A stretch of DNA of 36,291 nucleotides from a virus. The stretch is taken from UHGV virus genome UHGV-0200858; one strand, 5' to 3'. This document shows positions 3,042-36,291 of this stretch, piece after piece. The first letter of the stretch is position 1. Each line of letters begins with the position of its first letter. The notes under the pieces are model-generated. The model saw only the letters and a program-made list of their open reading frames with translations, ran no database searches and was not told where the DNA came from. Made by a program: the position numbers and the translations under genes.

Positions 3042-4226
3042 TTAGGCAGCGTCTAAAGGGCTTAAATCAAGTTCTAGGTCTTCCGGTTCCAAATCAGCTA
3101 ACTGTGCATTCATCCACTTAGCTAAATCTTCATCGGTTACGACAAAATCCGGTTTTTCTTCCCATTCATTAAGATACATCGGACGATCTGGATTTGCTGC
3201 GATATATTCATTAATGAAGTTTAATGCTTTCTTGAGAGTTTTAATCGGGCGTGTTTCCGTCCATCCATCCGGTACATCATGTTTTGAGGCAGTCTTACCC
3301 TTAACATGAATCTTTAACCCTTTCTCTAAGTCGATTGCTTGCCATCCCTTTTCAAACAGATGATTGAATATCAATTCATGTTTGTATGTGGATAATTTGG
3401 CTTGTTGTTGCATTCTCTTTTTAGAGTTGGAGGCGAAACCGATTTTAATAAATTCATCTCCTAATTTCTGAATATAGAGATAAGTCGGACGTGTCTTGTC
3501 AATTCTTCTTAGATTATATTCACCTGTTTCTAATGAACGTTGGTTTGAAAGGCAATCTGGACAAATCAGGATTCCACGGTCGCAAGGTTCACGGGTAGTT
3601 AAATCCCAATCCCCATGATGCGGACAATTACAGCGCAAGAGTGTCTCTCTTACTCCCTTCTCTTCTGACAACCAACAAACGAAGGTGTATCCGAATTCTT
3701 TACACAATTCCTTAATCTGTGCTTCTCTCTTAGCTCTCAATTCAGTGAGCGTATTACATCCGTTTCTACGAGCCAGATTGCTCTCTTTGGTGCAGCATGA
3801 ACAGTTTAAATTTCTACGGAATGCCAGATTAAGAGGGATAGTGAATTCTTCGTTGTGATTCAAGCAGAGAAATTTTGCTTTGGTTCCTTTGACGTGATTG
3901 TATTCACCATCCCAACCTAAAAACTGTTTCCCTTCCTGTTTCCCTCGTTCGGTTAGCTGGATTTTATATCCTTCCTCATTCCTTTTAAGGCTTCCCCCAT
4001 TGATTTGATTTAACTGTTTCAGTGCATGAATGCTGGAAAGTCCGGTAGGTTGATATGACACCTGAAAACGGGCTTCTACTCCTGATACATACGGTAAAAC
4101 AAAACCATCGAAGGTTAATCCGTGTTTCTCACACTGTTTAATGATTCTGGCTTGCACTTCTTCCGGTGTCTTCTGGTTTGGGTGAGTCTTAACAAAAACA
4201 ATCTCGTTTGCAAATGCTAGTTTCAT
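3042..4226 (-). CDS. GIY-YIG-like (T5orf172-type) domain protein with N-terminal Cys/His zinc-ribbon-like repeats; putative homing-endonuclease-like nuclease
   Basis: C-terminal half contains YLYIQKLGDEFIKIGFASNSKKR...E motif resembling GIY-YIG/T5orf172 fold; upstream CxxC/CxC/HH clusters (LNCSCC, RCNCPHHG, CPDC); paralogous to the 4381..4950 product. Confidence 0.55.
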   Translation of the reverse strand: MKLAFANEIVFVKTHPNQKTPEEVQARIIKQCEKHGLTFDGFVLPYVSGVEARFQVSYQPTGLSSIHALKQLNQINGGSLKRNEEGYKIQLTERGKQEGKQFLGWDGEYNHVKGTKAKFLCLNHNEEFTIPLNLAFRRNLNCSCCTKESNLARRNGCNTLTELRAKREAQIKELCKEFGYTFVCWLSEEKGVRETLLRCNCPHHGDWDLTTREPCDRGILICPDCLSNQRSLETGEYNLRRIDKTRPTYLYIQKLGDEFIKIGFASNSKKRMQQQAKLSTYKHELIFNHLFEKGWQAIDLEKGLKIHVKGKTASKHDVPDGWTETRPIKTLKKALNFINEYIAANPDRPMYLNEWEEKPDFVVTDEDLAKWMNAQLADLEPEDLELDLSPLDAA

Positions 4227-4380: not shown

Positions 4381-4950
4381 ATGATTCCAGTAATGGCTAA
4401 AGATATTGTTTTTACTCCTAAATCATCCCGTGCTGTAACTCCACCAGCATTAGAACAACGCATTCTTACTCACATCAAAGATAATGACTTACCGTTAGTC
4501 TTTCATGGCTTTCTGGGTGAGTTTAAAGGGCTTCACACGAGAATTGCTCTTACATGTACTCGCTGCGGTGATAGAGCCGACAAATCAGCTACTAACCTGC
4601 TTAATGAAGGCAAACGCTGTGTATGTTTCAAGAGTGATTATTTTCAATATAAAGCGGGTGTACCATATCTCTATGTGATGCAATCCGGCGATATTGGTAA
4701 ATTTGGTGTAACAAAATCGATTATCAAACGTAGGGTTAATCTGGGCTTACGTAATCCCGGTCATAACTTTGATATTGTCTATGCTCGTGAAATGCCATCA
4801 ATGAAACATGCGCTAGCCACTGAGCGAACAATAAAGAGAATGTTGGATGTGGGTATAGGCGGGATTGAATACGGCAAAACTGAAACATTCCACTACTGCA
4901 ATAAATCACTAAACAATATAAAGAATATTGCAAGTGTGGAGTGGAACTAA
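4381..4950 (+). CDS. GIY-YIG-like (T5orf172-type) domain protein with zinc ribbon (189 aa)
   Basis: CTRCG...CVC Cys cluster followed by YLYVMQSGDIGKFGVTKS...RRVNL...E motif; stop overlaps the start of the downstream helicase gene (TAATG). Confidence 0.55.
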   Translation: MIPVMAKDIVFTPKSSRAVTPPALEQRILTHIKDNDLPLVFHGFLGEFKGLHTRIALTCTRCGDRADKSATNLLNEGKRCVCFKSDYFQYKAGVPYLYVMQSGDIGKFGVTKSIIKRRVNLGLRNPGHNFDIVYAREMPSMKHALATERTIKRMLDVGIGGIEYGKTETFHYCNKSLNNIKNIASVEWN

Positions 4951-6440
4951 TGCAAGATATTAACATTCATTTTCAAGATTACAGTTTCGTTAAGGTTGAA
5001 TGCTCTCCTTCTATCGGAATGGAATTAAGAGATTATTTCTCGTTTGAGGTTGAAGGGGCTAGATTTAGCCCCCGCTACAAATATTCCGGCTGGGATGGAA
5101 AGATAAGACTGTTTACGCATGAGAACACCTTACCAATCGGATTATTGAAAACATTGGGTATCTTCGCTAAAAACATGGGCTATAGCGTATGGGTAGACCC
5201 CAGATTGCTTGAGAAGGAAGATGTAACCAAAGAATCAATTGATTCATGGATTGACTCTTTAGAAGTGTATTCCGGTAGCAATAAAATCAATCCTTACTGG
5301 TATCAAAGAGAGGCAGTATTTCAGGGTATCCATAATCGCCGTAGAATGCTGGTTCTTCCTACCAGTGCCGGAAAGTCATTGATTGCTTGTATGCTGTCTC
5401 GTTGGTACTTAGAGAACTACACCGGAAAGATTCTAATCATTGTCCCGACTACATCGCTGGTGGTTCAAATGAGGGATGATTTTGTCGATTATAGGCTATT
5501 CCCTTATGAAGCAATCCATACAATGATGAGTGGTAGCGGGAAACATCCGGGAGACAGGTTAATCACTGTTTCAACATGGCAATCAGCTTGCAAGATGCCT
5601 CCTGAATGGTTCCGACAATATGGAATGTTGATAGTTGATGAATCGCATCGTGCCAGCGCAAAGAATATCACCAATATCATCAACGGAATGAATCATTGTC
5701 AGTTTAAAATCGGTATGACTGGTTCCCCGAAAGAATCAAAGTGCCATTTAATGCAATATGTCGGGTTGTTCGGTGATATTCAGAAGATAGTAGCAATCAA
5801 GCAATTGATGGATGACGGACAAGTTACCCAGCTTAAAATTAATGCTCTCTTCCTTAAGTACAAAGATGAAGAATGTAAAGCAATGCGGGGCAAAGATTAT
5901 CAGGAAGAGATTAAATTCATCAATGCTCATAAGGTAAGGAATAAACTGGCTTGTAATTTGGCCTTAAAACTCGCCAGGAAGCAAGAAAACGTATTTTTGA
6001 TGTTCCGGTACTCTAAGCATGGAAAAATGCTTTATAATGCGTTACAGCGCGTTTACGATAAGGTTTATTACGTTTCCAGTGAGATTACCACCGCCGAACG
6101 CGATGCCTTAAAGAAAATGGCTGAAAATGAGAAAGGATTGATTGTAGTTGCCTCCTATGGTGTTTTCTCTACTGGCGTTTCAATTAAGAATCTTCATCAT
6201 GTCATTTTCGGTCATCCAGTGAAGGAATCAACCATTGTCCGGCAATCAATAGGACGTGCTCTTAGGAAACATGGTAGTAAAGCAATTGCGTATGTGTGGG
6301 ATTTGATAGATGTGATTTGTTCGAAAGACAAGAAAGGAAAATATACACGCAAGAATTATGCTTTAACTCATGGCCTCCAGAGAATCAATACTTACATATC
6401 AGATCGCTTCGAATATGTAACGAAAACAATCGAGATTTAA
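4941..6440 (+). CDS. uvsW: SF2 DExH-box helicase, UvsW-like
   Basis: Walker A LPTSAGKS, DExH box IVDESH, motifs ILIIVPTT, VYYVSSE, IVVASYGVFSTG, QSIGRALRKHGSK; overall layout and several motifs recall T4 UvsW (from memory, not searched). Track start is GTG; likely ATG start at about 4950 overlapping upstream stop. Confidence 0.8.
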   Translation: MELMQDINIHFQDYSFVKVECSPSIGMELRDYFSFEVEGARFSPRYKYSGWDGKIRLFTHENTLPIGLLKTLGIFAKNMGYSVWVDPRLLEKEDVTKESIDSWIDSLEVYSGSNKINPYWYQREAVFQGIHNRRRMLVLPTSAGKSLIACMLSRWYLENYTGKILIIVPTTSLVVQMRDDFVDYRLFPYEAIHTMMSGSGKHPGDRLITVSTWQSACKMPPEWFRQYGMLIVDESHRASAKNITNIINGMNHCQFKIGMTGSPKESKCHLMQYVGLFGDIQKIVAIKQLMDDGQVTQLKINALFLKYKDEECKAMRGKDYQEEIKFINAHKVRNKLACNLALKLARKQENVFLMFRYSKHGKMLYNALQRVYDKVYYVSSEITTAERDALKKMAENEKGLIVVASYGVFSTGVSIKNLHHVIFGHPVKESTIVRQSIGRALRKHGSKAIAYVWDLIDVICSKDKKGKYTRKNYALTHGLQRINTYISDRFEYVTKTIEI

Positions 6441-6483
6441 TAAATAGGGGCTTTAATGCCCCTTTATTCTACGGAGATTAAAA

Positions 6484-6747
6484 ATGATTAGCTTTAAACG
6501 TTTTTTGGTTGAGGCCGCTATTGACGGTTTTATGAGTAAGATTTATTCTTGTAATACTATCGAGGGATTAAATGAACTTGAGGCATATTATGAGAAGCGC
6601 AAGAAAGAAACAGAATTGAAACCTGCTGATGATATTTCGATCCGTGATGCCATCGCCGGACGACGCAAGCAACTGGAAGCGGAGAACGAGCCGGATGAGG
6701 AGCCAGAAGAGGATTTTTCTATCATCAATTTGTGCCAGATAAAATAA
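6484..6747 (+). CDS. small acidic protein, possible UvsW.1-like helicase partner (87 aa)
   Basis: Immediately downstream of the helicase, acidic C-terminus (EAENEPDEEPEEDF); position and size recall T4 uvsW.1; followed by terminator. Confidence 0.35.
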   Translation: MISFKRFLVEAAIDGFMSKIYSCNTIEGLNELEAYYEKRKKETELKPADDISIRDAIAGRRKQLEAENEPDEEPEEDFSIINLCQIK

Positions 6748-18034: not shown

Positions 18035-21000
18035 TCATTTACAGGATTTAATAGCCGCAAGTTCAGCTTTAACAGCTTTCAACTCTTCGTTCATCGCATC
18101 ATACTTAGTCGTTAATTCCTGAAAGGCTTTCACGAAAAGAGCATTGATACTAGAAACAGAAATAGTTTTAATTTCTCCTGGATTTTCGGTATCTCCATCG
18201 CTGCAAACGTGCACAGCTTCCGGCATAACTTTTTCCACATCTTGAGCAATGACACCTAATTCGCGTCCAACCACTGTATCATCAGAAAGTGATTTAACTT
18301 TATCGTAGGAATATACGGTTAAGCTGTTTAATTTATCCAGCGCACCTTCTTCCAATTCTTCCTTGTTGATCTTAAGACGTTCATCAGATCGAATATGCAC
18401 ATCGTTAAAGCTACCGTTACCCGGCGTGTAAAAGAACCCATCGTGATGGAACTCAAATACAGCTTGAGGGTGTCCGTTATCAGGTGAGTTTTCCGCAGAT
18501 CCAACACGAATAATTGCTTGTCCCCAATTGTTAGGGATACGACGCATACCAAAATCGACGGCAGTTGTATACCCTTGATTGGTGATTAAACTTCTTGCTT
18601 TAACAATCGGATAATAACAGTCTTGTCCAACATAGCCATGATCGACGAATATTGGCGCTTCCACTCGCCACTGATTACCCCAATCACCTGGTTGACTAGC
18701 GGTCCAACGTTCACCATGAACATATAATCGAGCGTTATTAACATGAACCATTTCGACGCCTTTTGGACTTAATGCAATATCCCCAGCGTTCGTAAGATTT
18801 ATCGCGGCATTAGTAGCATAGCTATAGAACGCTAATCCATTATCACCACCGCCTTTACCAATATACCAGTTGTTGTTGTCAGCACACGTACCCAACAAAT
18901 ATACAGACGAATCACCACTTTCGGCATTCATGATAATTGCATCAGATCCGCGATTAATTTTAAGTTTACCAAAGAAGGAGTTTTTAATGGTATTATCACC
19001 CAATCGTTCAAATTCTGCGAAAAATCCTTTTGAGTCACGAAGACTTAAAACGTTATTTCGACCTGTATTGCTTGCCCCCCAATGGACGAGTTCCATATAG
19101 TCCATAGATTGACGAGAACCAGCTTTAAAGAAAAGATTGTCCTCAAGACGAGTGCTACCATCAATCCCCAGATGTAAACACCGAGCGGTTTCAGTACCAC
19201 CTAAATATAATCCACCGTCCGCAAAATCATAGCTGAATGGTCTGCGATTATTCCAACTACCAAAAGAATCTTTTAAATCGGTAGTAAGAATATGGAAGCT
19301 AGAACCATCATTGCGTAACATCAAACCATAGTTACCGCCTTTGACAGCCAAACGAGCATTTTCAGACAATGCGACTTCGCTATTCATTACAATTTTCTGG
19401 CCTTTACCACCAGTAATATGTAATTCACCATCTTCAATCAGGTTTATCGAGTTTTGACCGTTATCGTTCCACCAAATAAAATCTTTGGTCTGCGCATCAC
19501 CGAAGCCAAACCAACCATTACGAACATCTGTACCAGTTCGATAATCAAAGAAGTTTAAGTGGCATGATTCGTTTGGACCACGACGAAAATCAATTGCTGA
19601 GTTTCCACCTAAACCGCCATCAATGGTCATTCTACGAATATGCAAACCGGACGATGCCGAAAGCAATAATTGTTGGTTAACATCTTCATAACCAGTTGCA
19701 AGGCGATATGACTGATCATCAACAGTTTCATGCCAGATTGTAGCTGGTGCAGAACTACGGAAGCGACGCAACATTTTCTTAGCATTTGTTTGTTGTTCGT
19801 TCAAATGCTCAATGTCATATTGGCCTTGATGGTTTCCGCCAAAATTTAACGTCCCACGGTTGCTAAAGTTATTAAACGATGAAATGTTAAGAGCATCAAA
19901 AATTTCATCTGCAACAGGTTTTTCACCGCCCAGGTATTCAGGAGTATCCAACAGGTTTAAAGAAACACCACCGGAAGAAACTTGATATTCTGCTAAAACA
20001 AATCCTGTATGTGCACCATAGTAAGCGTAAAGATCGTAATTATCACCATCGGTAGGAATTGCGCAAAAATATTGTTCGTAATACCAAATGCTATAATAAG
20101 CATTGAATACAACACCTTTCGGGCTATTGTTGCCGCAACGGATCACCAGTTCAATAACATTGGCTTGTCCATTCTGTCCGACGTTATAACCGTTACCACC
20201 CACTAAACGGATCTTAGCCGTACGACCGTGTTGTTGTGGCATTGTCAAAGTGCCTAGTTTAAACCAACCGCCCTCGACCCCAAAATTAAGCGTCTTCTGG
20301 AAAAGTCGGTCAATTTCTGCTTTCGAATATGCGCCAATTTCGGCAGGAGTAGGTTTATCACCCTCGTGATACATGCGGTGAGAATATGCCAAATGACCCA
20401 ATTCATCATAGCCGTATGTTCTTACAGTAGCATGTGGATTAGACCCATAAGTGAACTCGAAGCCACGAGCATGATTAACACCGGATGGATGTGGAACATG
20501 CAAGATCATAGCAATATGATCAGCTAGATCATTGGTACGGAATGCACCAAAGTAATCAAGATTACGCGCACTTGGATCATCAAAATAGTTTGCGGTCTTA
20601 GACAGCAAATAACCATCAGTGTAAGTGTTTACGTGTTTTTTGATGTACTTACCGTCACTCGATCCGTCGGCTGCATCAATACGGCTTTCTAAGCGCGCCA
20701 GTTCAGAATCAGTGTAAGACTTGTTATTGTCAACTTTGCTATGAATTGCCGTATTTTTGGCTTCAACATCACGGGTTAATGCTGCGACGTTATCCGCTGC
20801 CTCTTGCTTATTGGCTGCAATCACACCAGTAAGGTTATTGTAAGTGTCGGTTAATTGATTTTCCGCATAAGTTTTATTATCAGCGATAGTGCGATCAGTC
20901 TCGGCCTTAATCAAATCAACTTTGTCATTGATTGCTTTGTCATTGATTGCGATGGTTGCATCAGTACGGGATTTAATATCATCAACTTTTTTATTGATGC

Positions 21001-27364: not shown

Positions 27365-29269
27365 TTAGAACGATGTTACCCAGCTACGGCCTCTATTTGG
27401 GCGTCTGGCGATGTTTTTACGTTGTGGTCGTGTGATTGGCTTATTTTCTTCGATTTGCTCGTCAGATTGCGATTTAGGAGCTTTTACGGGTTCTTCGACA
27501 ACACGGTTTAAGCTGTCTTTCATTGCGATGAGTTTATCCCATGACATTTTTGAAAGGACGTAGCGAGAAGCCGCTGTAGCATACACGGCGCAGTCGAGCG
27601 CCTCGTTCCTAACGCCTGGGTTCTTTACCCATCTCACGCCAGTAGTAGTACGCTTGACAGATTCACTTAAAAGCTGATCGAGATAATCATCAGGAACGGT
27701 GTCTGATATTTCTAAGCCAATATGAGGATTATCTTTCAGGTTCCTAGCCAACATTTCACGAAATGCAGTTTTACCCACATTAACACCCAACATAAGCAAT
27801 TCATGACCACCTGTGCGGGTAGGTTTAACCGGAATGATCGGAGCGTTACCAGCAGAACTACCTTTGATAGCGTGTAAGTTCTTCCACTTGCCGCAAATAC
27901 GGTATCCAGCTTGAGTGAATCGACCGTTCGATGTATCAAGGAAGCTGGCGAGCATAGGAACACGATCACCCGATACAGTAGTAAATCTGGTTTTATGGAA
28001 GTTGATTAATCTATCCCATACAGGGGATTCATATCGTTCACAGTTATGATCGTAAAAGCTGCGGTGATCCAGAATATAAATCTTATCCTTTGCCACGCCC
28101 ATGATTGTAGTTTCTGCGCGATCTAATTGCTGGTCAGTACCCGCACACAAGAAAATCACGTCATCAGGGATATTCTCGATAGAAACATCTGTTTTGAGTT
28201 GTTCCAGTTCATTTGCTTCTACTGCCGTGTCCTGATCGTCGTATACCTTGCCTAACACGGTGTTATAAAATGATTGTAAATCAAAGGATTGCCACGCATG
28301 ACTAAAATCAACCACACAAGCGCGGATCGTGCTGAAAGGTGAATACAGACGGCTGATCCAGAATCCTGCTACTTCACTTTCACGGGTTGCTCTCCACTCG
28401 CCTTGTGCTACTGCCCTGATCCGCTCTCCTTCTGTCCATGCGTTCTTACAGTGGGGGCAAATATAACGAGCGGTATCAGGATCGGGTAAGTTCTTACCAT
28501 CGATGTTACGCCATTCAAATTGAACGTTTTCCCACTCGATCACCTGGTGTCTACCGCAATGAGGACACGGAACAAAAAACATACGCATATCGCTTGATAA
28601 CCATTGCTGGTTAATGCTTCCCAGCTTACTGGTCGGGGTACTGGATACGACTAATCGACCTTCATCGCCAAAGGTAGTTAAACGGTTAGCAGCCAGTGCC
28701 ACCGGATCACCTTCTTCTGAGGCTGTAGCAGCATCGATTTCGTCAAGCAATCCAACCTTTGCGGTCTTACCACGTAGGGTTGATGGACTGGTAAGCGATA
28801 CCATGTACAGGAAGTGATTCGTTTTTAGCTGTAGCTGGTTATTGTTGTTAACCGCATTGCGATCATTCTTGTCTGTAACCACGTCTTTTAATGCATCACA
28901 TGCTTCGATAGACGGTCGGATCTTACCAGCGAGATATTGAGACATTTCTTTAGCGGTTGATTGTCCGATAATCATATTGCATGGATCGTTAGCCATCTGG
29001 TTAAACAGGATGCCGTTCAGGATGGTAGTCTTTCCGATCTGCGCACTGGTCATCAGAACATACTTTTTCTTGTTCTCAAGGAAAGGAGCATCAATCATGC
29101 CTTTCTGGAATGACAGCAATTTAACTTTATCCCCAGCTTGAGGACCATCTACCAGCACCATATTCGCTTCGCACCATTCCGATGGAAGGAGTTTAGGCGG
29201 TGGCGTAATATATTTTGCGGCATTTCTAAGAATTCTTTTTAGTTTTGTTTTGTTCGAAATTAGTTTCAT
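27365..29269 (-). CDS. terL: terminase large subunit (634 aa)
   Basis: Size, position upstream of portal, N-terminal ATPase-like region (Walker A-like MTSAQIGKT, Walker B-like VGLLDEID) and C-terminal nuclease-like region with conserved acidic residues. Confidence 0.8.
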
Positions 29270-29961: not shown

Positions 29962-30219
29962 TTGAGAATTCACTATTGTTTGGAGGAAACTACTATGACT
30001 ACTAAAGCTACTCGCGGACGTCCTTGCCGTTTTGATCGTGAACAACTGGCAGCGATTGTAAAAGCGTACTATCAAGCACCGAAAGGTAAAGCCGAAAAAG
30101 AACAAGTATTGAGCGAACACGGTATTTCAATCGCTCAATTCTACAAATCACTCCATAAAGTTGATTTGAAATTCTTTGTTCAGGTTGACGGTGAAATGGT
30201 AGAAGCAACAGGAATTTGA
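29962..30219 (+). CDS. small HTH-like DNA-binding protein (paralog family)
   Basis: RGRPCRFDREQLAAIVKAYY ... GISIAQFYKSLHKV pattern; likely true start at internal ATG about 29995 preceded by GGAGGA; followed by terminator. Confidence 0.45.
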   Translation: MRIHYCLEETTMTTKATRGRPCRFDREQLAAIVKAYYQAPKGKAEKEQVLSEHGISIAQFYKSLHKVDLKFFVQVDGEMVEATGI

Positions 30220-30301: not shown

Positions 30302-31219
30302 TTACAGTCCGAAGTGTTCCAGTGATCCAGCATTCTGACGAATCAGCAAAGCAGTATTATTGACGATTGCTCGTGAGTTGTTAGGTTGTGGCAATTTCAA
30401 AGTTGCTGCCTTTTCTTCTTCAAGCAATCCGAGTTTTACGAGATGCGGGATAGCATCAGCAGTGAACTCGATCTGACCGTGTGCTGACATACGAGCGAAC
30501 ATATAGCCAGGAGGAAGCAGATCATAACCGTTAGGCTTACCAGAAGCATCCAGACGACGCTCAAGAACACCAGCAGCACATAACCCTTTCAGAATCATTT
30601 GTACCTTCACAGAGCCTCGTTTTTCGCCTAATAAGCGGGTTAAGCTGTGTGTGTCGATAGCTTTACGTACATGCAATTCAACCAGTTGATTCTTTTCCTG
30701 AATCAGTTGTTCGTTTGCAGCTTCCAGTTCCATTGCCTCGCGAATCCAATCGAGCTTAGTCATGTTTGCGTATGGGTTGACTTGCTGAGAACGCAGTTTT
30801 TCATTTTCTTCTTTCAGTCGTTTCCATTCCTGAATAACAACCATTCGACGCTTAACATCGTAACCAGTGACAAGAGTCAGAGTCATTTCTTCGTCTAAGT
30901 GATATACTGGTTCTTTAACAGCATATCCTAAGTTATTGATTCTCTCGACAAATTCAGTTTTGAGCTGATCGATAATACCTAAAGATTCGTACATTTCGCG
31001 AATATCGCGCATTACATTGCTGTGCTTCTTATCGGTGAATTCCGCGATCTGACGGGAAGACATGGTAAGCGGTTTGGTGTTATCAACAACCAGAGACACA
31101 GAAGCAGTTTTAGTAGTCATAGTTTTAACAGTATTCATAGTAAAAATTCCCCTTAAACGGTTTTGCGATTGATACTCCATTTTGATTAACTGTCCACACG
31201 CCAACGGCGCGCGGAACAA
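30302..31219 (-). CDS. rha: Rha-family phage regulatory protein (antirepressor-like)
   Basis: LTMSSRQIAEFTDKKHSNVMRDIREM matches the conserved N-terminal Rha motif; C-terminal region with coiled coil. Track start likely over-extended; probable start at Met about 31138 preceded by AAGGGG. Confidence 0.65.
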   Translation of the reverse strand: MFRAPLACGQLIKMEYQSQNRLRGIFTMNTVKTMTTKTASVSLVVDNTKPLTMSSRQIAEFTDKKHSNVMRDIREMYESLGIIDQLKTEFVERINNLGYAVKEPVYHLDEEMTLTLVTGYDVKRRMVVIQEWKRLKEENEKLRSQQVNPYANMTKLDWIREAMELEAANEQLIQEKNQLVELHVRKAIDTHSLTRLLGEKRGSVKVQMILKGLCAAGVLERRLDASGKPNGYDLLPPGYMFARMSAHGQIEFTADAIPHLVKLGLLEEEKAATLKLPQPNNSRAIVNNTALLIRQNAGSLEHFGL

Positions 31220-31241
31220 TTTTATTTATAATAGAAATTTA

Positions 31242-31574
31242 TTACCAATCGATTTCTACCTGATCTTCTTCATAATAAGGAATCGCATATTCATAACGCC
31301 AGTTTTCGATGATTTCACGTTCTTCATTAGTAAGAAGGTGATTGCTAACTGGAGTCGCATTGTGATTACCAGCTTCGAATTGCTCGCGAACTTCCAGCAT
31401 TGCATGAATACCAGTTAATGACATCAGATCAAACGGAACATGCATACTACGGGAGATAGTTTCACGGGATACGCCCCAATCATTTTCTACATGGCTAGGG
31501 CTTACAGAAACGGTTTTGCCGGAGATTTTAACAGTCCAGTCATACAGGGATTTAGTGATGGTAAATTCTTTCAT
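31242..31574 (-). CDS. hypothetical protein (110 aa)
   Basis: ORF with AGAGGA SD; no recognisable motif. Confidence 0.45.
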   Translation of the reverse strand: MKEFTITKSLYDWTVKISGKTVSVSPSHVENDWGVSRETISRSMHVPFDLMSLTGIHAMLEVREQFEAGNHNATPVSNHLLTNEEREIIENWRYEYAIPYYEEDQVEIDW

Positions 31575-31649
31575 GTTACATCCTCTTTACAAATCTAGGT
31601 CAAATAGGTTCAAAGTTGTCAAGTGCGATAATCATAAAAAAGTCAGAAA

Positions 31650-31685
31650 TATTTGTCAATACCCCTTGACAAGTTGCCAAAGGGT
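31650..31685. promoter_or_regulatory. inverted-repeat operator candidate TTGTCAA-N7-TTGACAA with additional TTGACC copy (approx)
   Basis: ATATTTGTCAATACCCCTTGACAAGTTGCCAAAGGGTTGACC in the gap between two minus-strand early genes. Confidence 0.35.
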
Positions 31686-31693
31686 TGACCTCA

Positions 31694-32203
31694 TTAGAGC
31701 ATTTCTAAGCCATCGTGATAGCCGTAGAAGCCATTCTGAGAAGAGAAACAGATAGGAGCATAATCATCATCTTCGTCGTCTTCATCTTCGTCATAATCGT
31801 TTTTAGGGGCTTCCTGAGCGTCTTCTTTACCGTAGTTAAACATGGCTTCGTCAATCTCTTGAAGGGTTACGAAACTACCCAGATCTTGATCACCGGAACG
31901 GACTTCGAACGGCAGGTCATCACGAACAATAATTGCTGGTAGATTCTGGTATTTCGCACGATCTTGATCGGTGAAGCAGTTAACTACGATAGTAGGTTTC
32001 TTGTTCTTGCAAAACGAATACCAAGCACTAGAAAAGCTGGATTCATCGGAATCAAAAAGGATGTTATAACCACGTTCAACGAAGATCTTCATTAAACGGT
32101 CATTGTGAAAGCTATCTGCATCCAGACCTAACAGGATGAAAGGAGTAGTAGTCTTGTTCTTGTACATAGTTGGTAATCCTCTAAAAGAAAGTGAATCAAA
32201 CAA
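31694..32203 (-). CDS. early protein with acidic C-terminal tail (169 aa)
   Basis: First gene of the leftward unit leaving the control region; C-terminal DYDEDEDDEDDDY acidic run; N-terminal alpha/beta-like region without recognisable catalytic motif. Confidence 0.45.
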   Translation of the reverse strand: MFDSLSFRGLPTMYKNKTTTPFILLGLDADSFHNDRLMKIFVERGYNILFDSDESSFSSAWYSFCKNKKPTIVVNCFTDQDRAKYQNLPAIIVRDDLPFEVRSGDQDLGSFVTLQEIDEAMFNYGKEDAQEAPKNDYDEDEDDEDDDYAPICFSSQNGFYGYHDGLEML

Positions 32204-32753
32204 ATTACACTAGTATTTATAACGAGAATTTTTTATCTATTTGGAAGTGATTGGTATTCAGTCTGGCTAAAGCCATCCTTCATGTACTAGAACAAGAATT
32301 ATACAAAACAAATTTTCTTCTATAATAATATTATATAATAGTTCTTCGTTTTGATTAAATGATCATCAAACCAGTATTGACGCTCTCCAGAGCGTCTGCG
32401 AAGCAATCTATTACCTTCTAGTATTATCAAAGTGATTCTAACTACCTTTCTAGTAACCAGTTAGTAACCACCTAGTATTAAATCCCTTTCTAAGAAAATC
32501 CTTTCAAAAGTGAGTGAACGCCGTAGGCGTGAACGTGAGCGAAGCGAACTATCCAATCCCTTTCGAATCCTGCTTGCAGGTCTTAGAAGGTGTTGGTGGG
32601 CGCTACGCGCACGGCTACGCCGTATTCTTTTTGTGAGATCTTTCTTGAACGCTAGTGAGAGAAAGCGAACAAAAAGGAGAACGTTAGTTCGAGTTTTATA
32701 TTCTATGGTCTGTGTGGTCAAATGCTTTTGCAAATCATACACTTACGTGATTA

Positions 32754-32878
32754 AAGTGTAGGGTTAGTGTAGGTGTGTAGGTTTCATAGTGTAGGTTTGG
32801 ACATGTTCTAGTGTAGGTTTACTGGCTAGTGTAGTGTAGGCCAATCCCTTTCATGTGTAGGTTTGTAGTGTAGGTTTT
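32754..32878 (+). repeat. direct-repeat (iteron-like) array, about 8 copies of GTGTAGG(T)TT
   Basis: Read directly: AGTGTAGGGTT, AGTGTAGGTG, TGTGTAGGTTT, AGTGTAGGTTT, AGTGTAGGTTT, AGTGTAGTGTAGG, TGTGTAGGTTT, AGTGTAGGTTT, all same orientation, spacing 10-20 bp, in non-coding AT-rich region. Confidence 0.8.
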
Positions 32879-32896
32879 TCATCAAAAATTTTGATA
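32878..32896. promoter_or_regulatory. near-palindromic site ATCAAAAATTTTGAT (operator candidate, copy 1)
   Basis: CATCAAAAATTTTGATAAAAA immediately after the iteron array; dyad symmetric. Confidence 0.4.
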
Positions 32897-32959
32897 AAAA
32901 ATTCTTGTATATTATTTAACCAAAAAATCATCAAAAAATAGCTGTAAGTTAATGATTTA

Positions 32960-32993
32960 AAAGGAATTGTCAAAAGGTCACCGTGCTATAATA
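32960..32993 (+). promoter_or_regulatory. extended -10 promoter candidate (TGcTATAAT) (approx)
   Basis: GGAATTGTCAAAAGGTCACCGTGCTATAATAGG: TGnTATAAT extended -10 with upstream TTGTCA-like element. Confidence 0.45.
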
Positions 32994-33029
32994 GGTTATA
33001 AAGGTTGATAATCCTGATCAGCCGTTTTC

Positions 33030-33046
33030 ACACAAAAATTTTGATA
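33030..33046. promoter_or_regulatory. near-palindromic site CAAAAATTTTGATAG (operator candidate, copy 2)
   Basis: Second copy of the AAAAATTTTGATA dyad about 150 bp from copy 1 and about 27 bp upstream of a consensus -35. Confidence 0.4.
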
Positions 33047-33072
33047 GTCATTTCTCGCCTAGATCATGGGTA

Positions 33073-33101
33073 TTGACAATAGTCAAGAACTATTTTATAC
33101 T
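33073..33101 (+). promoter_or_regulatory. near-consensus sigma70 promoter (TTGACA-17-TATACT) driving the rightward early unit
   Basis: TTGACAATAGTCAAGAACTATTTTATACT; the -35 lies within the inverted repeat TTGAC-N4-GTCAA. Confidence 0.6.
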
Positions 33102-33428
33102 TTTTCTCACTGGTGGGGGTTGAAATTTTCAAAACAATCCCCATATAGATGATAGGCAAGAATTTCTCTTGTATAAATACATGCATGAAAATGATTGTTC
33201 ACTTCTGAAATCTCCAGATTCACTGTTAATTCATACAGCACTGGTTAGATATACAGTGCTTTTTCGGTTGAATAATGTACGAATTGATTAATTATTAATC
33301 TTCTCTTTAGCAATTCGTGCTCCCACTGATCGGATATACAGTAGTTTTACAGGGTTTTTCGAAAATCATTTTATAAATAGATATGTCGAGAGCGAAAAGC
33401 TCTTTTTAAAGTTTTCATTATTCCACAA

Positions 33429-33623
33429 TTGAGGATTCTACTTATGGCTAGACCTGTTAAATTTACCCGTGAAATGATTGTTGATATTGCTAAACGCTTT
33501 TATGGTGACACTGAACGAGGCGGTGAGAACTTCTTTAAGAAGGAAGGAATTGATAGAAGCGGATTCTACAAACTAATGAAGAAATACGAGATTCAAGTAA
33601 AGATTAACGTTCAAGTTTGTTAA
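33429..33623 (+). CDS. small HTH-like DNA-binding protein (64 aa), paralog of 29962..30219
   Basis: ARPVKFTREMIVDIAKRFY ... GIDRSGFYKLMKKYEIQV pattern shared with the other two small modules; AGGA SD. Confidence 0.45.
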   Translation: MRILLMARPVKFTREMIVDIAKRFYGDTERGGENFFKKEGIDRSGFYKLMKKYEIQVKINVQVC

Positions 33624-33661
33624 TCACCTTTCACTGAGAATTATATGATGGCTTTAAAAAT

Positions 33662-33696
33662 AAAAAAGCCTCCCTGTTGGCGCAAGGAGGCTTTTA
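33662..33696 (+). terminator. hairpin terminator/attenuator immediately upstream of the 33742 gene (approx)
   Basis: GCCTCC CTGTTGGCGCAA GGAGGC followed by TTTT; A-run on the 5' side. Confidence 0.4.
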
Positions 33697-33741
33697 GCAT
33701 GAAACATTAAAAACAAACACAGAGCATTCAGGAGTATTTAT

Positions 33742-34773
33742 ATGAAAAATTCTAAGCGCATCACCTTCAACCTGTTCATCAAAGCAAACGGCAAACTGAA
33801 CATTACTGTCATGGAAGGTAAAGCAAGCAAACAAGACAAATCCTTTGAAGTAGTATCCGGTAAGACTCTGACCGAAATGCGTCAGAATGCTGGCATCAAA
33901 GACGGTGCTGAATGGCAGATCACTAACCGTTTCGACAAACGTCACGTTAAACCTACACTGGTAGAAGGTGAATCCGTTTATTGCTTCGCTCGTGCTGTTA
34001 AAGCTGATGAGACTTACTATCTCGCTGTTGTTAAAACTGCTTCCGGCTTCCGTGCTGTAATGCACCACAAGAGCAAGCGTAACGAATACGGTGTAGAGAC
34101 CCAGGAAGTTGCAAAACGCTTCCGTACTGTTGCTACTGAATCCACTGTAAAAGATGTTTCTGGTACTGTTAACACCGCTAAAGGTGGTTCTTTCTACAAC
34201 CACGCATTACAGGTTACTTCCTCCTTCTTCTGCAAAAAAGAAGCTGTGAAAGAAGTTGCTCCGGTAGTAGTTGAAGAAGTTAAAGAAGAAGTTGCAGTGG
34301 TTGAATCTTCCGAAGTTGAAGCACTGAAAGCACGAATCGCTGAACTGGAAGCTGAAATGACAGCAGTTAAAGCAGAAAACGCATCTCTGAAAGCAGAACT
34401 GGCAGCACAGGAAACTACTTTCGAAGTAGCAGCGGTTGAAGTTGAAGCAGTTGAAGAAAAATCCATTGATGAAGAACTGGAAGAACTCCTTAACTATCGC
34501 TGGGGTAACGGTGAAGTAGAAGAAGAACAGGAAAACGAGAAAGAAGCTGATCCGGTAGTAGTTCCGGTTGAAGTTGAAGCAGAATCCGCACCAGTTACTA
34601 ACTTTGAATCCCTGCGCAATAACTTTATGGCTAAATTCAAAACCACTTGGGAAGATACCGAAGAAGAACAAGAAGAGATTGAAGTAAACGAAGACGAGAT
34701 CCGCGAAGCACAGATGGCACTGCATGACGCTATCTATGACACCAACTACAGCGCCTACGCATACGCAGCTTAA
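33742..34773 (+). CDS. highly acidic early protein with N-terminal globular domain and C-terminal E/V/A-rich coiled coil (343 aa)
   Basis: Strong SD (AGGAG), codon usage strongly biased to major E. coli-type codons (CTG, AAA, GAA, GTT, CGT), C-terminal half dominated by E/A/V repeats (EVEAVEEK, VVPVEVEAE); candidate host-takeover/anti-defence protein. Confidence 0.55.
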   Translation: MKNSKRITFNLFIKANGKLNITVMEGKASKQDKSFEVVSGKTLTEMRQNAGIKDGAEWQITNRFDKRHVKPTLVEGESVYCFARAVKADETYYLAVVKTASGFRAVMHHKSKRNEYGVETQEVAKRFRTVATESTVKDVSGTVNTAKGGSFYNHALQVTSSFFCKKEAVKEVAPVVVEEVKEEVAVVESSEVEALKARIAELEAEMTAVKAENASLKAELAAQETTFEVAAVEVEAVEEKSIDEELEELLNYRWGNGEVEEEQENEKEADPVVVPVEVEAESAPVTNFESLRNNFMAKFKTTWEDTEEEQEEIEVNEDEIREAQMALHDAIYDTNYSAYAYAA

Positions 34774-34788
34774 TAGAGGGGTGAATCT

Positions 34789-35031
34789 ATGATGAATCAA
34801 AACAAAGAATTTCTGGGTAATCTGATGTTAGAAATTACCAAAATTAAAGAAAGAATGGTAGCGATGGAATCAGAGATTAAAACTCTTAAAGCTGATAATA
34901 AGGCGTTGAGAAAGTCCTTAAAGCTGATTGATGAGACTAATGCGGTTATGATGGATCATGTATTCCCTGAGTGGCGAAATGAAACTAAACCTACACAACA
35001 CAAGAAACCTACACTTCGGATTGTTGCATAA
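34789..35031 (+). CDS. small coiled-coil protein (80 aa)
   Basis: GGGGTGA SD; heptad-like region EITKIKERMVAMESEIKTLKADNKALRKSLKLIDE; followed by hairpin. Confidence 0.45.
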   Translation: MMNQNKEFLGNLMLEITKIKERMVAMESEIKTLKADNKALRKSLKLIDETNAVMMDHVFPEWRNETKPTQHKKPTLRIVA

Positions 35032-35060
35032 AAAAAGGGAGTCCCATTTAAGAGACTCCC
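35029..35060. terminator. hairpin terminator between convergent units (approx)
   Basis: A-run, GGGAGTC CCATTTAAGA GACTCCC; T-run on the minus strand, so strongest as a minus-strand terminator. Confidence 0.45.
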
Positions 35061-35133
35061 TATAGTTAGGTTAGGTTTGCACAACAAAGATGAGGTTATA
35101 ATGAACATAATGCTACATTATTCTTTAAAGCCA

Positions 35134-35159
35134 GAAAAATAACCGCCCCGAAGGGCGGG
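35134..35159 (-). terminator. rho-independent terminator, minus strand (approx)
   Basis: CCGCCC UUCG GGGCGG with UUCG tetraloop on minus strand followed by U-run (A-run on plus strand). Confidence 0.5.
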
Positions 35160-35317
35160 AGGATTAATACTCAATCTATACTTGTTATGTTTTTATGTTG
35201 TATAGATCACTGACTATGAAAACACTGTACTGGAGTTGTGTTTTATGGCTTTTAATCGGGAATCCTCAAAGAAGATCCCCTGTTAATAACCATAAGGAGA
35301 AAAGGCAGATTACACTA

Positions 35318-35647
35318 TTATTTAGTACGCTTGAAAATGTGATTCAAAACGACAAACAGACAGTAAAACCAAAATGCGATTAACAACACATGAATTGATG
35401 AAGTCGGTTTAAAATCAAATAAGAACATCGCTAGACAATCCACTGTAAAGGAAATTACTTCGACAATCGCAAACAAACTAGCAATTCCACAAAACGCGCC
35501 TAAAAACAATTCCCAACGTTCTTTTTCATTGGTAGACAGTTTGAAAGCAGAAACGATAGAAAGAACAACGATGATCACGAGATAAGTTAAGAAAGTAGCC
35601 ATTAGTATTTTGCCTCTAGTTAGACAAACATCCTCTAAAAAATTCAA
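35318..35647 (-). CDS. small multi-pass membrane protein (109 aa)
   Basis: Three hydrophobic segments (LMATFLTYLVIIVVLSIVSAF, LFLGAFCGIASLFAIVEVISF, VLLIAFWFYCLFVVL); lies in a markedly AT-rich segment. Confidence 0.4.
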   Translation of the reverse strand: MNFLEDVCLTRGKILMATFLTYLVIIVVLSIVSAFKLSTNEKERWELFLGAFCGIASLFAIVEVISFTVDCLAMFLFDFKPTSSIHVLLIAFWFYCLFVVLNHIFKRTK

Positions 35648-35730
35648 ATCAGAAAAGTTAAGCGGGGGAGGTTATCCCCCGTAGGCGTTGCCCATCAACA
35701 CCCTTCACACATATATTTAGTATCTATTTT

Positions 35731-36291
35731 TTAGGACACATCGAATTCATCATCTTCTTCGGATTCTTCTTGTTCTTCCGGTTCATCCATTAACGGTAAT
35801 TCTTCTTCGTCCTCGTCTTCACCTAATTCTGCATTTTCGAACATATCCCCTACTTCATTTAAACGACGCTCGATGATCTCCCTTAGCTTATTCTTCAACG
35901 TTTTCTGATCGGTTGCAGATTCGAGAATTTCTAAAGCATCGATTGTGGCGATCTGCAAAATAGTCTGCTTCACTTTCCCGCAGTATTCCGCTAGTTCCTG
36001 TTCTACATACCCTACTGGAATAAGTTGGTTCATCGCTTCCTGGTTCTCGCGTTCGGCAGCATCTGCTAAAGCACGTTCACGGCGTAATTTCTCGACATCG
36101 ATTTGTTCCTTAATAGAAGTTTCTTTGAGCGGGTTAATGATATTTTTCAAGACCCATTCTGTACCCTCTTTTGCTGGTACGCGTCGTGTATTGGTATTAA
36201 ATGGCATTCCTCGTTGCTGCCATTTCTTAGCTGCGTTGATTGTATAGCCGTATAAGCGGGAAATTTCTGTAAGGGTTAATTCTTCTTTCAT
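35731..36291 (-). CDS. Nu1-like winged-HTH DNA-binding protein, putative terminase small subunit (186 aa)
   Basis: N-terminal LTLTEISRLYGYTINAAKKWQQRGMP resembles the lambda Nu1 HTH (QNWQEQGMP), followed by EKLRRE coiled coil and acidic C-terminus; the window ends exactly at the start codon. Confidence 0.5.
   Translation of the reverse strand: MKEELTLTEISRLYGYTINAAKKWQQRGMPFNTNTRRVPAKEGTEWVLKNIINPLKETSIKEQIDVEKLRRERALADAAERENQEAMNQLIPVGYVEQELAEYCGKVKQTILQIATIDALEILESATDQKTLKNKLREIIERRLNEVGDMFENAELGEDEDEEELPLMDEPEEQEESEEDDEFDVS

Follow-up and report, generated by a model that had tools for sequence, protein, structure and literature searches.

Beyond repA of plasmid P1 and repE of mini-F lies a second set of iterons, termed incA and incC respectively. 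In plasmids, most iterons are direct repeats, which are arranged in helical phase and are located beside an A+T-rich region (PMC5043065). In the PLE satellites, the DNA-binding domain of the initiator is exchanged together with the iterons of the origin (PMC8263062). The DNA analysed here, virus genome UHGV-0200858, is a stretch of 36,291 nucleotides (hereafter, the window). It is a temperate Escherichia coli prophage of an uncharacterised lineage, and it contains an array of short direct repeats about 0.9 kb to the left of the gene for p343, an orphan protein of 343 residues. This array is real, conserved and functional. The strict pairing of repeat types with protein domain types among related loci strongly argues that the N-terminal domain of p343 binds the array specifically, as a site in multiple copies. 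The function of the array is best guessed as that of an iteron-type replication origin or replication-control locus, with p343 as the initiator, and a probability of roughly 0.45 is given to this reading.

The sequence at 32754-32878 is AAGTGTAGGGTTAGTGTAGGTGTGTAGGTTTCATAGTGTAGGTTTGGACATGTTCTAGTGTAGGTTTACTGGCTAGTGTAGTGTAGGCCAATCCCTTTCATGTGTAGGTTTGTAGTGTAGGTTTTT. Exact copies of GTGTAGG start at 32756, 32767, 32775, 32789, 32811, 32834, 32855 and 32868, and a ninth, partial copy (GTGTAGT) starts at 32829, all of them on the plus strand. The repeat unit is 10-12 bp long, and the 10-mer GTGTAGGTTT is exact in five copies and one base off in two more. GTGTAGG is found 14 times in the window, as compared with 1.98 ± 1.25 times expected, and none of 100 shuffled sequences reaches 14. 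A sequence-only reading of the window had described this cluster as about eight copies in the same orientation, far beyond chance. The shuffles bear this out, with eight exact copies, one partial copy and a slightly longer consensus. The start-to-start spacings are 11, 8, 14, 22, 23 (18 + 5), 21 and 13 bp, and when the periodicity is compared with the helical pitch, as that reading had proposed, six of the nine copies lie at phase 0-1 of an 11-bp period. Three exact copies of the 10-mer are also found in inverted orientation in or after the p343 and p80 genes, as compared with ~0.07 expected in 36 kb (2 x 36291 / 4^10). The two copies at the end of the p80 gene are kept in the type A loci scanned, the second with one mismatch in several of them.

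The array was compared among 22 related loci that contain both the intergenic region and the downstream gene. These loci come from E. coli genomes (L001-L005), IMG/VR contigs (L007-L020) and assemblies reached through protein look-ups (L022-L025). An array is present at the same position in all of them, and its repeat unit falls into seven types (Table 1). The array of the window (type A) is retained in ten other loci, which are ~86% identical around it; in L014 and L015, a clean deletion of 22 bp has removed one unit. The types other than A have 4-13 or more matches to their core motif at the same place. Close relatives therefore keep the array, and in more distant ones another array occupies its position; the absence or lack of conservation that the sequence-only reading had named as counting against it is not seen.

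The type of the array and the type of the N-terminal domain of the downstream protein (313-371 amino acids) correspond one-to-one, without exception, in the 22 loci. This domain (~170 residues) is 98-99% identical among all type A loci and is undetectable by tblastn in types B to E. The type F domain is 44-47% identical to that of type A, and the type F motif differs from that of type A at two positions. Likewise, the type B' domain is 80% identical to that of type B, and the type B' motif is one base off that of type B. The relation between motif and domain is graded, in such a way that closer domains accompany closer motifs. This co-variation strongly supports the earlier proposal that the array is the site of a multimeric DNA-binding protein.

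When the types are compared by blastn, homology is lost at ~32436-32513 and is regained exactly at 32877-32880, on the final base of the array's final repeat. The regained homology is 81-89% identical in types B, C and E and extends there to 33696-33744, near the start codon of p343. In type D, it extends only to 33183. A second break in homology ends at ~35007, in the last codons of p80. The array and the gene are separate variable blocks, with a segment of up to 865 bp between them that is kept in five of the types, and therefore linkage within one divergent block does not explain their pairing. Two cassettes that always match across a conserved segment are what would be expected for a DNA site and the protein domain that reads it.

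The spacings in types B and B' are nearly all 21-24 bp, with one gap of 58 bp in L004. In types A, C and F, the commonest spacing is 20-23 bp or its double, alongside steps of 8-14 bp. The spacings in type D are 22, 24, 21 and 80 bp. Some arrays are composite. Type C arrays have one type B/B' unit (L005, 6375-6392), the arrays of types D (L010, ~6330-6360) and B' (L025, 3084-3135) end in several CGGGGA units of type E, and the type E array (L016, 4338) holds one type D unit. These foreign-type units could be recombination scars, or sites of cross-talk between relatives. In type C, one exact 12-mer of its own repeat is located ~2.4 kb to the left of the array (L019, 7757; L008, 7883), near the convergent ends of the p85 and Rha genes according to the alignment offset. 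It is analogous to the inverted copies of type A.

Table 1. Features of the control region of the window and repeat units of the seven array types
Feature	Position	Strand	Remarks
Variable cassette V1	32464..32877	.	Array and a GC-rich double hairpin (~32590-32630) to its left
Direct-repeat array	32755..32878	+	Nine copies, consensus (T)AGTGTAGGTTT
A+T-rich block, candidate DNA-unwinding element	32879..32965	.	Conserved in types A-E
Predicted promoter P1, extended -10 TGCTATAAT	32984..32992	+	Reads rightwards
Predicted promoter P2 (TTGACA-17-TATACT)	33073..33101	+	
p64, small GRP/HTH-like protein	33429..33623	+	First gene of the rightward operon
p343, orphan 343-residue protein	33742..34773	+	Proposed array-binding protein
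Inverted exact GTGTAGGTTT	33949..33958	-	Inside the p343 gene; kept in the window and five other type A loci scanned
p80, short coiled-coil protein ending PTLRIVA	34789..35031	+	
Two inverted GTGTAGGTTT	34987..34996, 35005..35014	-	3' end of p80, right edge of cassette V2
Type A unit			GTGTAGGTTT (core GTGTAGG); window and ten other loci
Type F unit			TAGTGCAGGG (core GTGCAGG); L022, L023
Type B unit			TGGAATCTTGGGGATTT (motif AATCTTGGGG); L004
Type B' unit			TGGAATCTAGGGGATTT (motif AATCTAGGGG); L024, L025
Type C unit			TTTCAGGGGCAAAAAT (motif CAGGGGCAA); L005, L007-9, L019
Type D unit			CTAATACCGGGGGATTT (motif AATACCGGGG); L010
Type E unit			ACGGGGA, many copies (motif CGGGGA); L016

The strict co-variation with a protein domain argues against the neutrality of the repeats. 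That they are neutral products of slippage, or that they act at the RNA level as a protein-titrating or structured transcript, is very improbable. G-rich cores (AGG or GGGG) do recur in all types, and the surrounding 1.2 kb is without an open reading frame (ORF) and holds hairpins and terminator-like elements, as such a role would allow. However, no predicted promoter reads through the array on the plus strand, and an Rfam scan gives nothing above chance. Within type A, the cores vary less (4 of 53 columns) than the spacers (12 of 65) and the left flank (19 of 60), the difference between cores and spacers alone not being significant (Fisher p = 0.11).

p343 is the protein that varies with the array. 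The small helix-turn-helix (HTH) proteins, the Nu1-like small terminase subunit (TerS) and Rha, which the sequence-only reading had put forward as partners, do not. p64, p85, p169, p200, Rha and TerS were each considered as the binding protein and rejected, because none of them co-varies with the array. Over the N-terminal 70 residues of TerS, the identity is 57-96% among type A loci and 86-99% in type C. For p64, it is 55-100% among type A loci, and one type C locus has 94%. Rha, p85, p169 and p200 show the same lack of coupling to the array type. The arm sites of attP were rejected as well, because the integrase is a serine recombinase and the att sites are located at the window ends. A degenerate copy of the repeat had also been reported at 35063-35079. 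This sequence exists, and it is located after the terminator of p80. It is conserved in L019, a type C relative, and is therefore neither type-specific nor part of the repeat system of the array.

The part of p343 that co-varies with the array type is its N-terminal domain (~1-175). This domain is under purifying selection, with a ratio of non-synonymous to synonymous substitution rates (dN/dS) of ~0.04-0.12 between the window and the other type A loci. The C-terminal part is exchanged independently in the family and has three forms; type C occurs with two different C-termini (L005 and L019). Such an independent exchange is typical of a modular DNA-binding protein. A coiled coil is predicted at ~189-254 by the model built from an alignment and at 190-230 by the model built from the single sequence, both with a low predicted local distance difference test score (pLDDT). 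Models and alignments have only these features in common: a strand-rich N-terminus, a long helix from ~190, acidic linkers and a helical C-terminus. A HMMER search with p343 over 1.84 billion representatives gives six matches. Four of them are credible, each being a fragment or close relative of this protein, and the other two are spurious repeat proteins, so that none links p343 to a known family. In a search of 5.8 billion proteins, all named relatives are hypothetical proteins of Escherichia, Shigella or Salmonella. Matches to LmuB and YabA are weak, fall on the coiled coil and were rejected.

In other types, the analogue of p343 is followed by a second ORF of 197-341 amino acids, of which p80 is the short form. 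The C-terminus is -AA in all p343-type proteins (34764-34773 in the window; P0243, P0247-P0251), and the ORF that follows, p80 or its longer forms, ends in -LVA or -IVA (35020-35031 in the window). These tails resemble protease tags of the ssrA type, a hint that the proteins may be rapidly turned over.

The uncoupling of the TerS N-terminal domain from the array type also bears on the possibility that the array is a centromere-like partition site (parC or tubC) or a terminase site of the cosB or pac type, which is quite improbable. In lambda cosB, repeated Nu1 sites have an IHF site between them, and the Nu1-like TerS of the window is encoded 2.9 kb away from the array. However, the terminase is of the gpA/cos type, and the array is not beside terS. 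Both parC and tubC typically consist of tandem direct repeats to which a small adaptor binds. In the ParR-parC and TubR-tubC systems, as in this array, the repeats are about one helical turn long, and there they are cooperatively coated by a small protein. Unlike these adaptors, p343 is three times larger and unrelated in sequence. No partner NTPase (ParA, ParM or TubZ) is found among the submitted ORFs with Pfam, PHROGs, NCBIfam or PADLOC, and the elements are integrated, all copies being chromosomal and none on plasmids. Of the roles that had been offered for the array (origin, partition, packaging or regulation), an origin is the best single guess, regulation is weighed below, and partition and packaging are disfavoured. 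The terS gene (35731-36291) is 6.4 kb from the gpA-type terL gene (27365-29269), with the whole regulatory region between them, and only ~365 bp from the junction between prophage and host.

The reading of the array as an origin is favoured because the repeats are direct and phased, because an A+T-rich block adjoins them, because inverted copies are present and because there is a precedent for the joint exchange of iterons and domain. It is also favoured because the operon has a small HTH protein, p343 and a second protein in this order, behind a strong promoter and a terminator-bearing leader, like early replication operons. No other candidate for a replication initiator is found among the ORFs searched. 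The array has at least three repeated sites, helical phase and a nearby protein with matching specificity, all of which are features of an iteron origin. The first 60 bp to its right, a candidate unwinding element on account of their composition, have a GC content of 15% and form the fourth least stable 60-bp segment of the 36 kb. In four types (A, B, C and E), a block of 15-20% GC directly adjoins the array. The block of type D is offset by 60 bp and reaches 23% GC. The palindrome ATCAAAAATTTTGAT at 32881-32895, right beside the array, may be a near-consensus IHF-like site, as it matches at 12 of 13 positions by eye.

According to this reading, several p343 molecules, joined by their central coiled coil, would sit on one face of the helix, on units about two turns apart. 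The bound protein would distort the DNA and open the adjoining block of 15% GC (32879-32940), and this opening may be aided by negative supercoils that arise behind P1 and P2, promoters that read outwards. The exchangeable C-terminal domain of p343, with p80/ORF2, would recruit host replication proteins. The three inverted copies may be control or pairing sites, like the incA and incC iterons. Origin function, unwinding, recruitment and handcuffing can be inferred moderately to weakly. A dual role of p343 as initiator and autoregulator, as in Rep proteins, would be compatible with this reading.

Three known systems show how far the resemblance extends. In the iteron plasmids, the gene of the binding protein lies next to the array, with more copies on its far side, as in the incA and incC layouts and as in the window. 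Phased direct repeats beside an A+T-rich region are also common to the window and the iteron replicons (P1 oriR-repA-incA, mini-F ori2-repE-incC, RK2, R6K and pSC101) (PMC5043065). However, p343 is not similar to the winged-helix initiators of the Rep_3/RepA type, DnaA boxes are absent, the units are 10-12 bp long instead of 17-22 bp, and the element is integrated and is never seen as a plasmid. The second system is the lambda O protein and its origin. In both cases, the gene of the (proposed) initiator follows a small HTH gene in a rightward early operon, the module shows mosaicism between relatives, the N-terminal domain sets the iteron specificity and the C-terminal domain is exchangeable. 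An A+T-rich block beside the iterons is also shared, and nearby transcription could aid its opening (PMC5043065). In contrast to the four inverted-repeat 19-mers inside the O gene, the window has nine direct repeats of 10-12 bp, 0.9 kb upstream of the gene, and p343 has no match to Pfam Phage_rep_O. The third system is RepA of the PLE satellites of Vibrio cholerae, in which the DNA-binding domain and the iterons are swapped together and the rest is conserved (PMC8263062). This protein, however, belongs to the RepA_N family and has three semi-palindromic iterons of ~30 bp, whereas p343 is an orphan with short direct repeats. The system is best described as one that resembles an iteron-initiator pair, but lacks the homology of the protein and the accessory sites.

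Several results weigh against an origin. p343 belongs to no known initiator family, and the search of it and its neighbours against Pfam, PHROGs, NCBIfam, PADLOC and PDB sequence profiles gives only coiled-coil noise. AlphaFold gives no usable model of it (pLDDT of 45 from the single sequence and 43 from a 12-row alignment). Sites for DnaA and nucleoid proteins are likewise missing: a scan of 31089-36291 finds no DnaA box (TTATCCACA) with one mismatch or fewer, and a scan near the array finds no exact IHF consensus (WATCAANNNNTTR). The cumulative GC skew tracks the orientation of the genes and does not mark the site of the array. The A+T-rich block is absent in L022, L023 and L025, in which this region has 33-37% GC. 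Because no relatives are found on plasmids, autonomous replication is never seen. Other orphans of the region (p200, p169 and p110) could hide the true initiator. Finally, L022, L023 and L025 have a consensus sigma-54 promoter after the array, and in L022 one repeat copy overlaps the start site, an arrangement that looks regulatory.

This last arrangement also fits type-specific transcriptional control, the chief alternative, which is somewhat less probable than an origin. p343 would be an autoregulator, an activator or an immunity-like repressor that coats the array upstream of P1 and P2, looping to the distal copies would control the rightward operon or the whole region, and the seven types would represent heteroimmunity-like specificities. 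The array is located within an ORF-free region of 1.2 kb (32204-33428), with the leftward operon p169-p110-Rha on its left and the rightward operon p64-p343-p80 on its right, so that its placement in a divergent control region had been correctly recognised. Relative to the promoters that drive the operon of p343 itself, it is upstream by 105-235 bp (P1) and by ~200-320 bp (P2). The distance from the end of the array is 106 bp to the -10 of P1 and 195 bp to the -35 of P2, these promoters being predicted, and the candidate promoter of p169 is more than 440 bp from the array. In L022, L023 and L025, the sigma-54 promoter is 55-140 bp downstream of the array, a classical distance for an enhancer. 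However, none of the predicted core promoters of the window is overlapped by a repeat, P2 already has a conserved palindrome (TTGAC-N4-GTCAA) as an operator of its own, and p343 is without the AAA+ domain that is required of sigma-54 activators.

The co-variation of array and p343 domain is also what is expected for repressor and operator between heteroimmune relatives. That so narrow a lineage has many specificity types, and that types A and C reside together in strain UTME-9, is like the mosaicism of immunity regions. The isolated distal sites, 1-2.4 kb away, recall the looping between OL and OR, and a 6.5-kb remnant (L005) retains the array and the intact gene. An N-terminal DNA-binding domain followed by a coiled coil and a protease-prone tail recalls the Mu repressor. 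Mu repressor c with O1-O3, like other multi-site repressors such as C of phage P2, has about nine sites, spread across a divergent control region that includes a bend site. In the Mu protein, the DNA-binding domain is N-terminal, a coiled coil serves oligomerisation, and the C-terminal tail could invite ClpXP. Unlike the repeats of the window, which are in one orientation and overlap no predicted promoter, the operators of Mu occur in both orientations and overlap its early and repressor promoters. Nine phased direct repeats beside a block of 15% GC would be unusual for an operator. Moreover, the p343 gene is behind a leader of ~330 nt with a terminator-like hairpin, unlike the gene of a maintenance repressor. 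The readings other than an origin and transcriptional control are, even when taken together, unlikely.

It is possible, although less likely than not, that p343 and its analogues make up a family of origin-binding phage initiators, or of master regulators, that had not been recognised before. A fast-evolving, beta-rich N-terminal domain would read short phased direct repeats, the specificities of array and domain would be swapped as two separate cassettes, and at least seven specificities would exist in one narrow prophage lineage of Escherichia and Salmonella. Single foreign-type units could then permit cross-talk or parasitism between co-resident relatives. A likely DNA target and a testable role are given to a protein family that is called hypothetical in every database. 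The seven natural pairs of motif and domain, including near neighbours one or two bases apart, are useful for examining how a new DNA-binding fold reads its sequence. If the array is an origin, the replication module of this E. coli and Salmonella prophage lineage and a new initiator family would be in hand. If it is regulatory, the specificity determinant of the lineage, immunity-like in nature, would be defined.

Other elements of the control region surround the array. The palindrome TTGAC-N4-GTCAA (33073-33086) encloses the -35 of P2. All relatives examined have it, with differing 4-bp spacers. It is therefore likely to be the operator of a conserved dimeric regulator, not of p343; this may be p64 or p85. 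p64 is a paralogue of p85 (29962-30219). The sigma-54 promoter of L022, L023 and L025 (TTGGCACGG-N3-TTGCW, at 3286, 3230 and 3272 respectively) is between the array and P2, at a position that corresponds to ~32965-32992 of the window, where the window has the sigma-70 extended -10. No TGGCAC-N5-TTGC is found when the control region of the window is scanned. The array region of L022 contains, by eye, a near-consensus NtrC-like dyad, TGCACCGTATTAGTGCA.

The leader of ~330 nt upstream of p64 contains hairpins. Between P2 and p64 (33108-33350), a hairpin is located at 33112-33140, a terminator-like hairpin with a T run at 33236-33264, and a tandem repeat of ~85 nt at 33239-33263 and 33324-33348. 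These features suggest attenuation, antitermination or a small RNA. To the left of the array, at 32590-32630, a T run comes after two neighbouring GC hairpins (GCGC-loop-GCGC and GGC-loop-GCC), which are conserved, with different loops, in types B and C. Other repeat families, CTAGTAAC... and AATCCCTTTC, are located at 32413-32510 and do not track the array type.

The prophage itself encodes a large serine integrase (1274-2968), a T4-type UvsW helicase and, on the minus strand, the gpA-type large terminase, a lambda-type portal, a protease-capsid fusion and tail genes. A copy of 98.9% identity is inside ycdX of strain FDAARGOS_1267, and other relatives are in hicB. Prophage relatives are present in 58-61 of 5426 complete E. 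coli genomes (~1%), and all 60 places in one scan and all 66 in another are chromosomal, with none on plasmids. No relatives are found among isolated phages and plasmids by tblastn and blastn. The sole plasmid matches are two 71-bp Salmonella matches around 30894-30964, which are unrelated to the array. None of the isolated phages is close: the best match of the large terminase among them is 44% identical, and the control region matches none of them. A scan of genome contigs with p169 gives no match, a DNA-pattern scan gives only an unrelated Clostridium metagenome-assembled genome (L021), and a literature search on the prophage (ycdX/hicB integration) gives nothing relevant.

The remnant L005 (NZ_CP121356.1, 2776280-2782738) is located at hicB and has only Rha to TerS left. 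Its structural genes and integrase are deleted, and the array and an intact type C gene are retained. The chromosome of UTME-9 (NZ_CP157110.1) has copies of the module at 2805362-2807295 and 3411875-3415006, one of type C and one of type A, and possibly a third place; different types are therefore able to co-reside. At 4941-6747 and 18213-20600, the window contains T4-type uvsW and uvsW.1 genes (~76% nucleotide identity, RB49-like phages) and a segment like gp37, the distal long-tail-fibre protein, with 81-84% nucleotide identity to T-even phages. These identities indicate that genes have recently passed between virulent phages of the T-even group and this temperate lineage.

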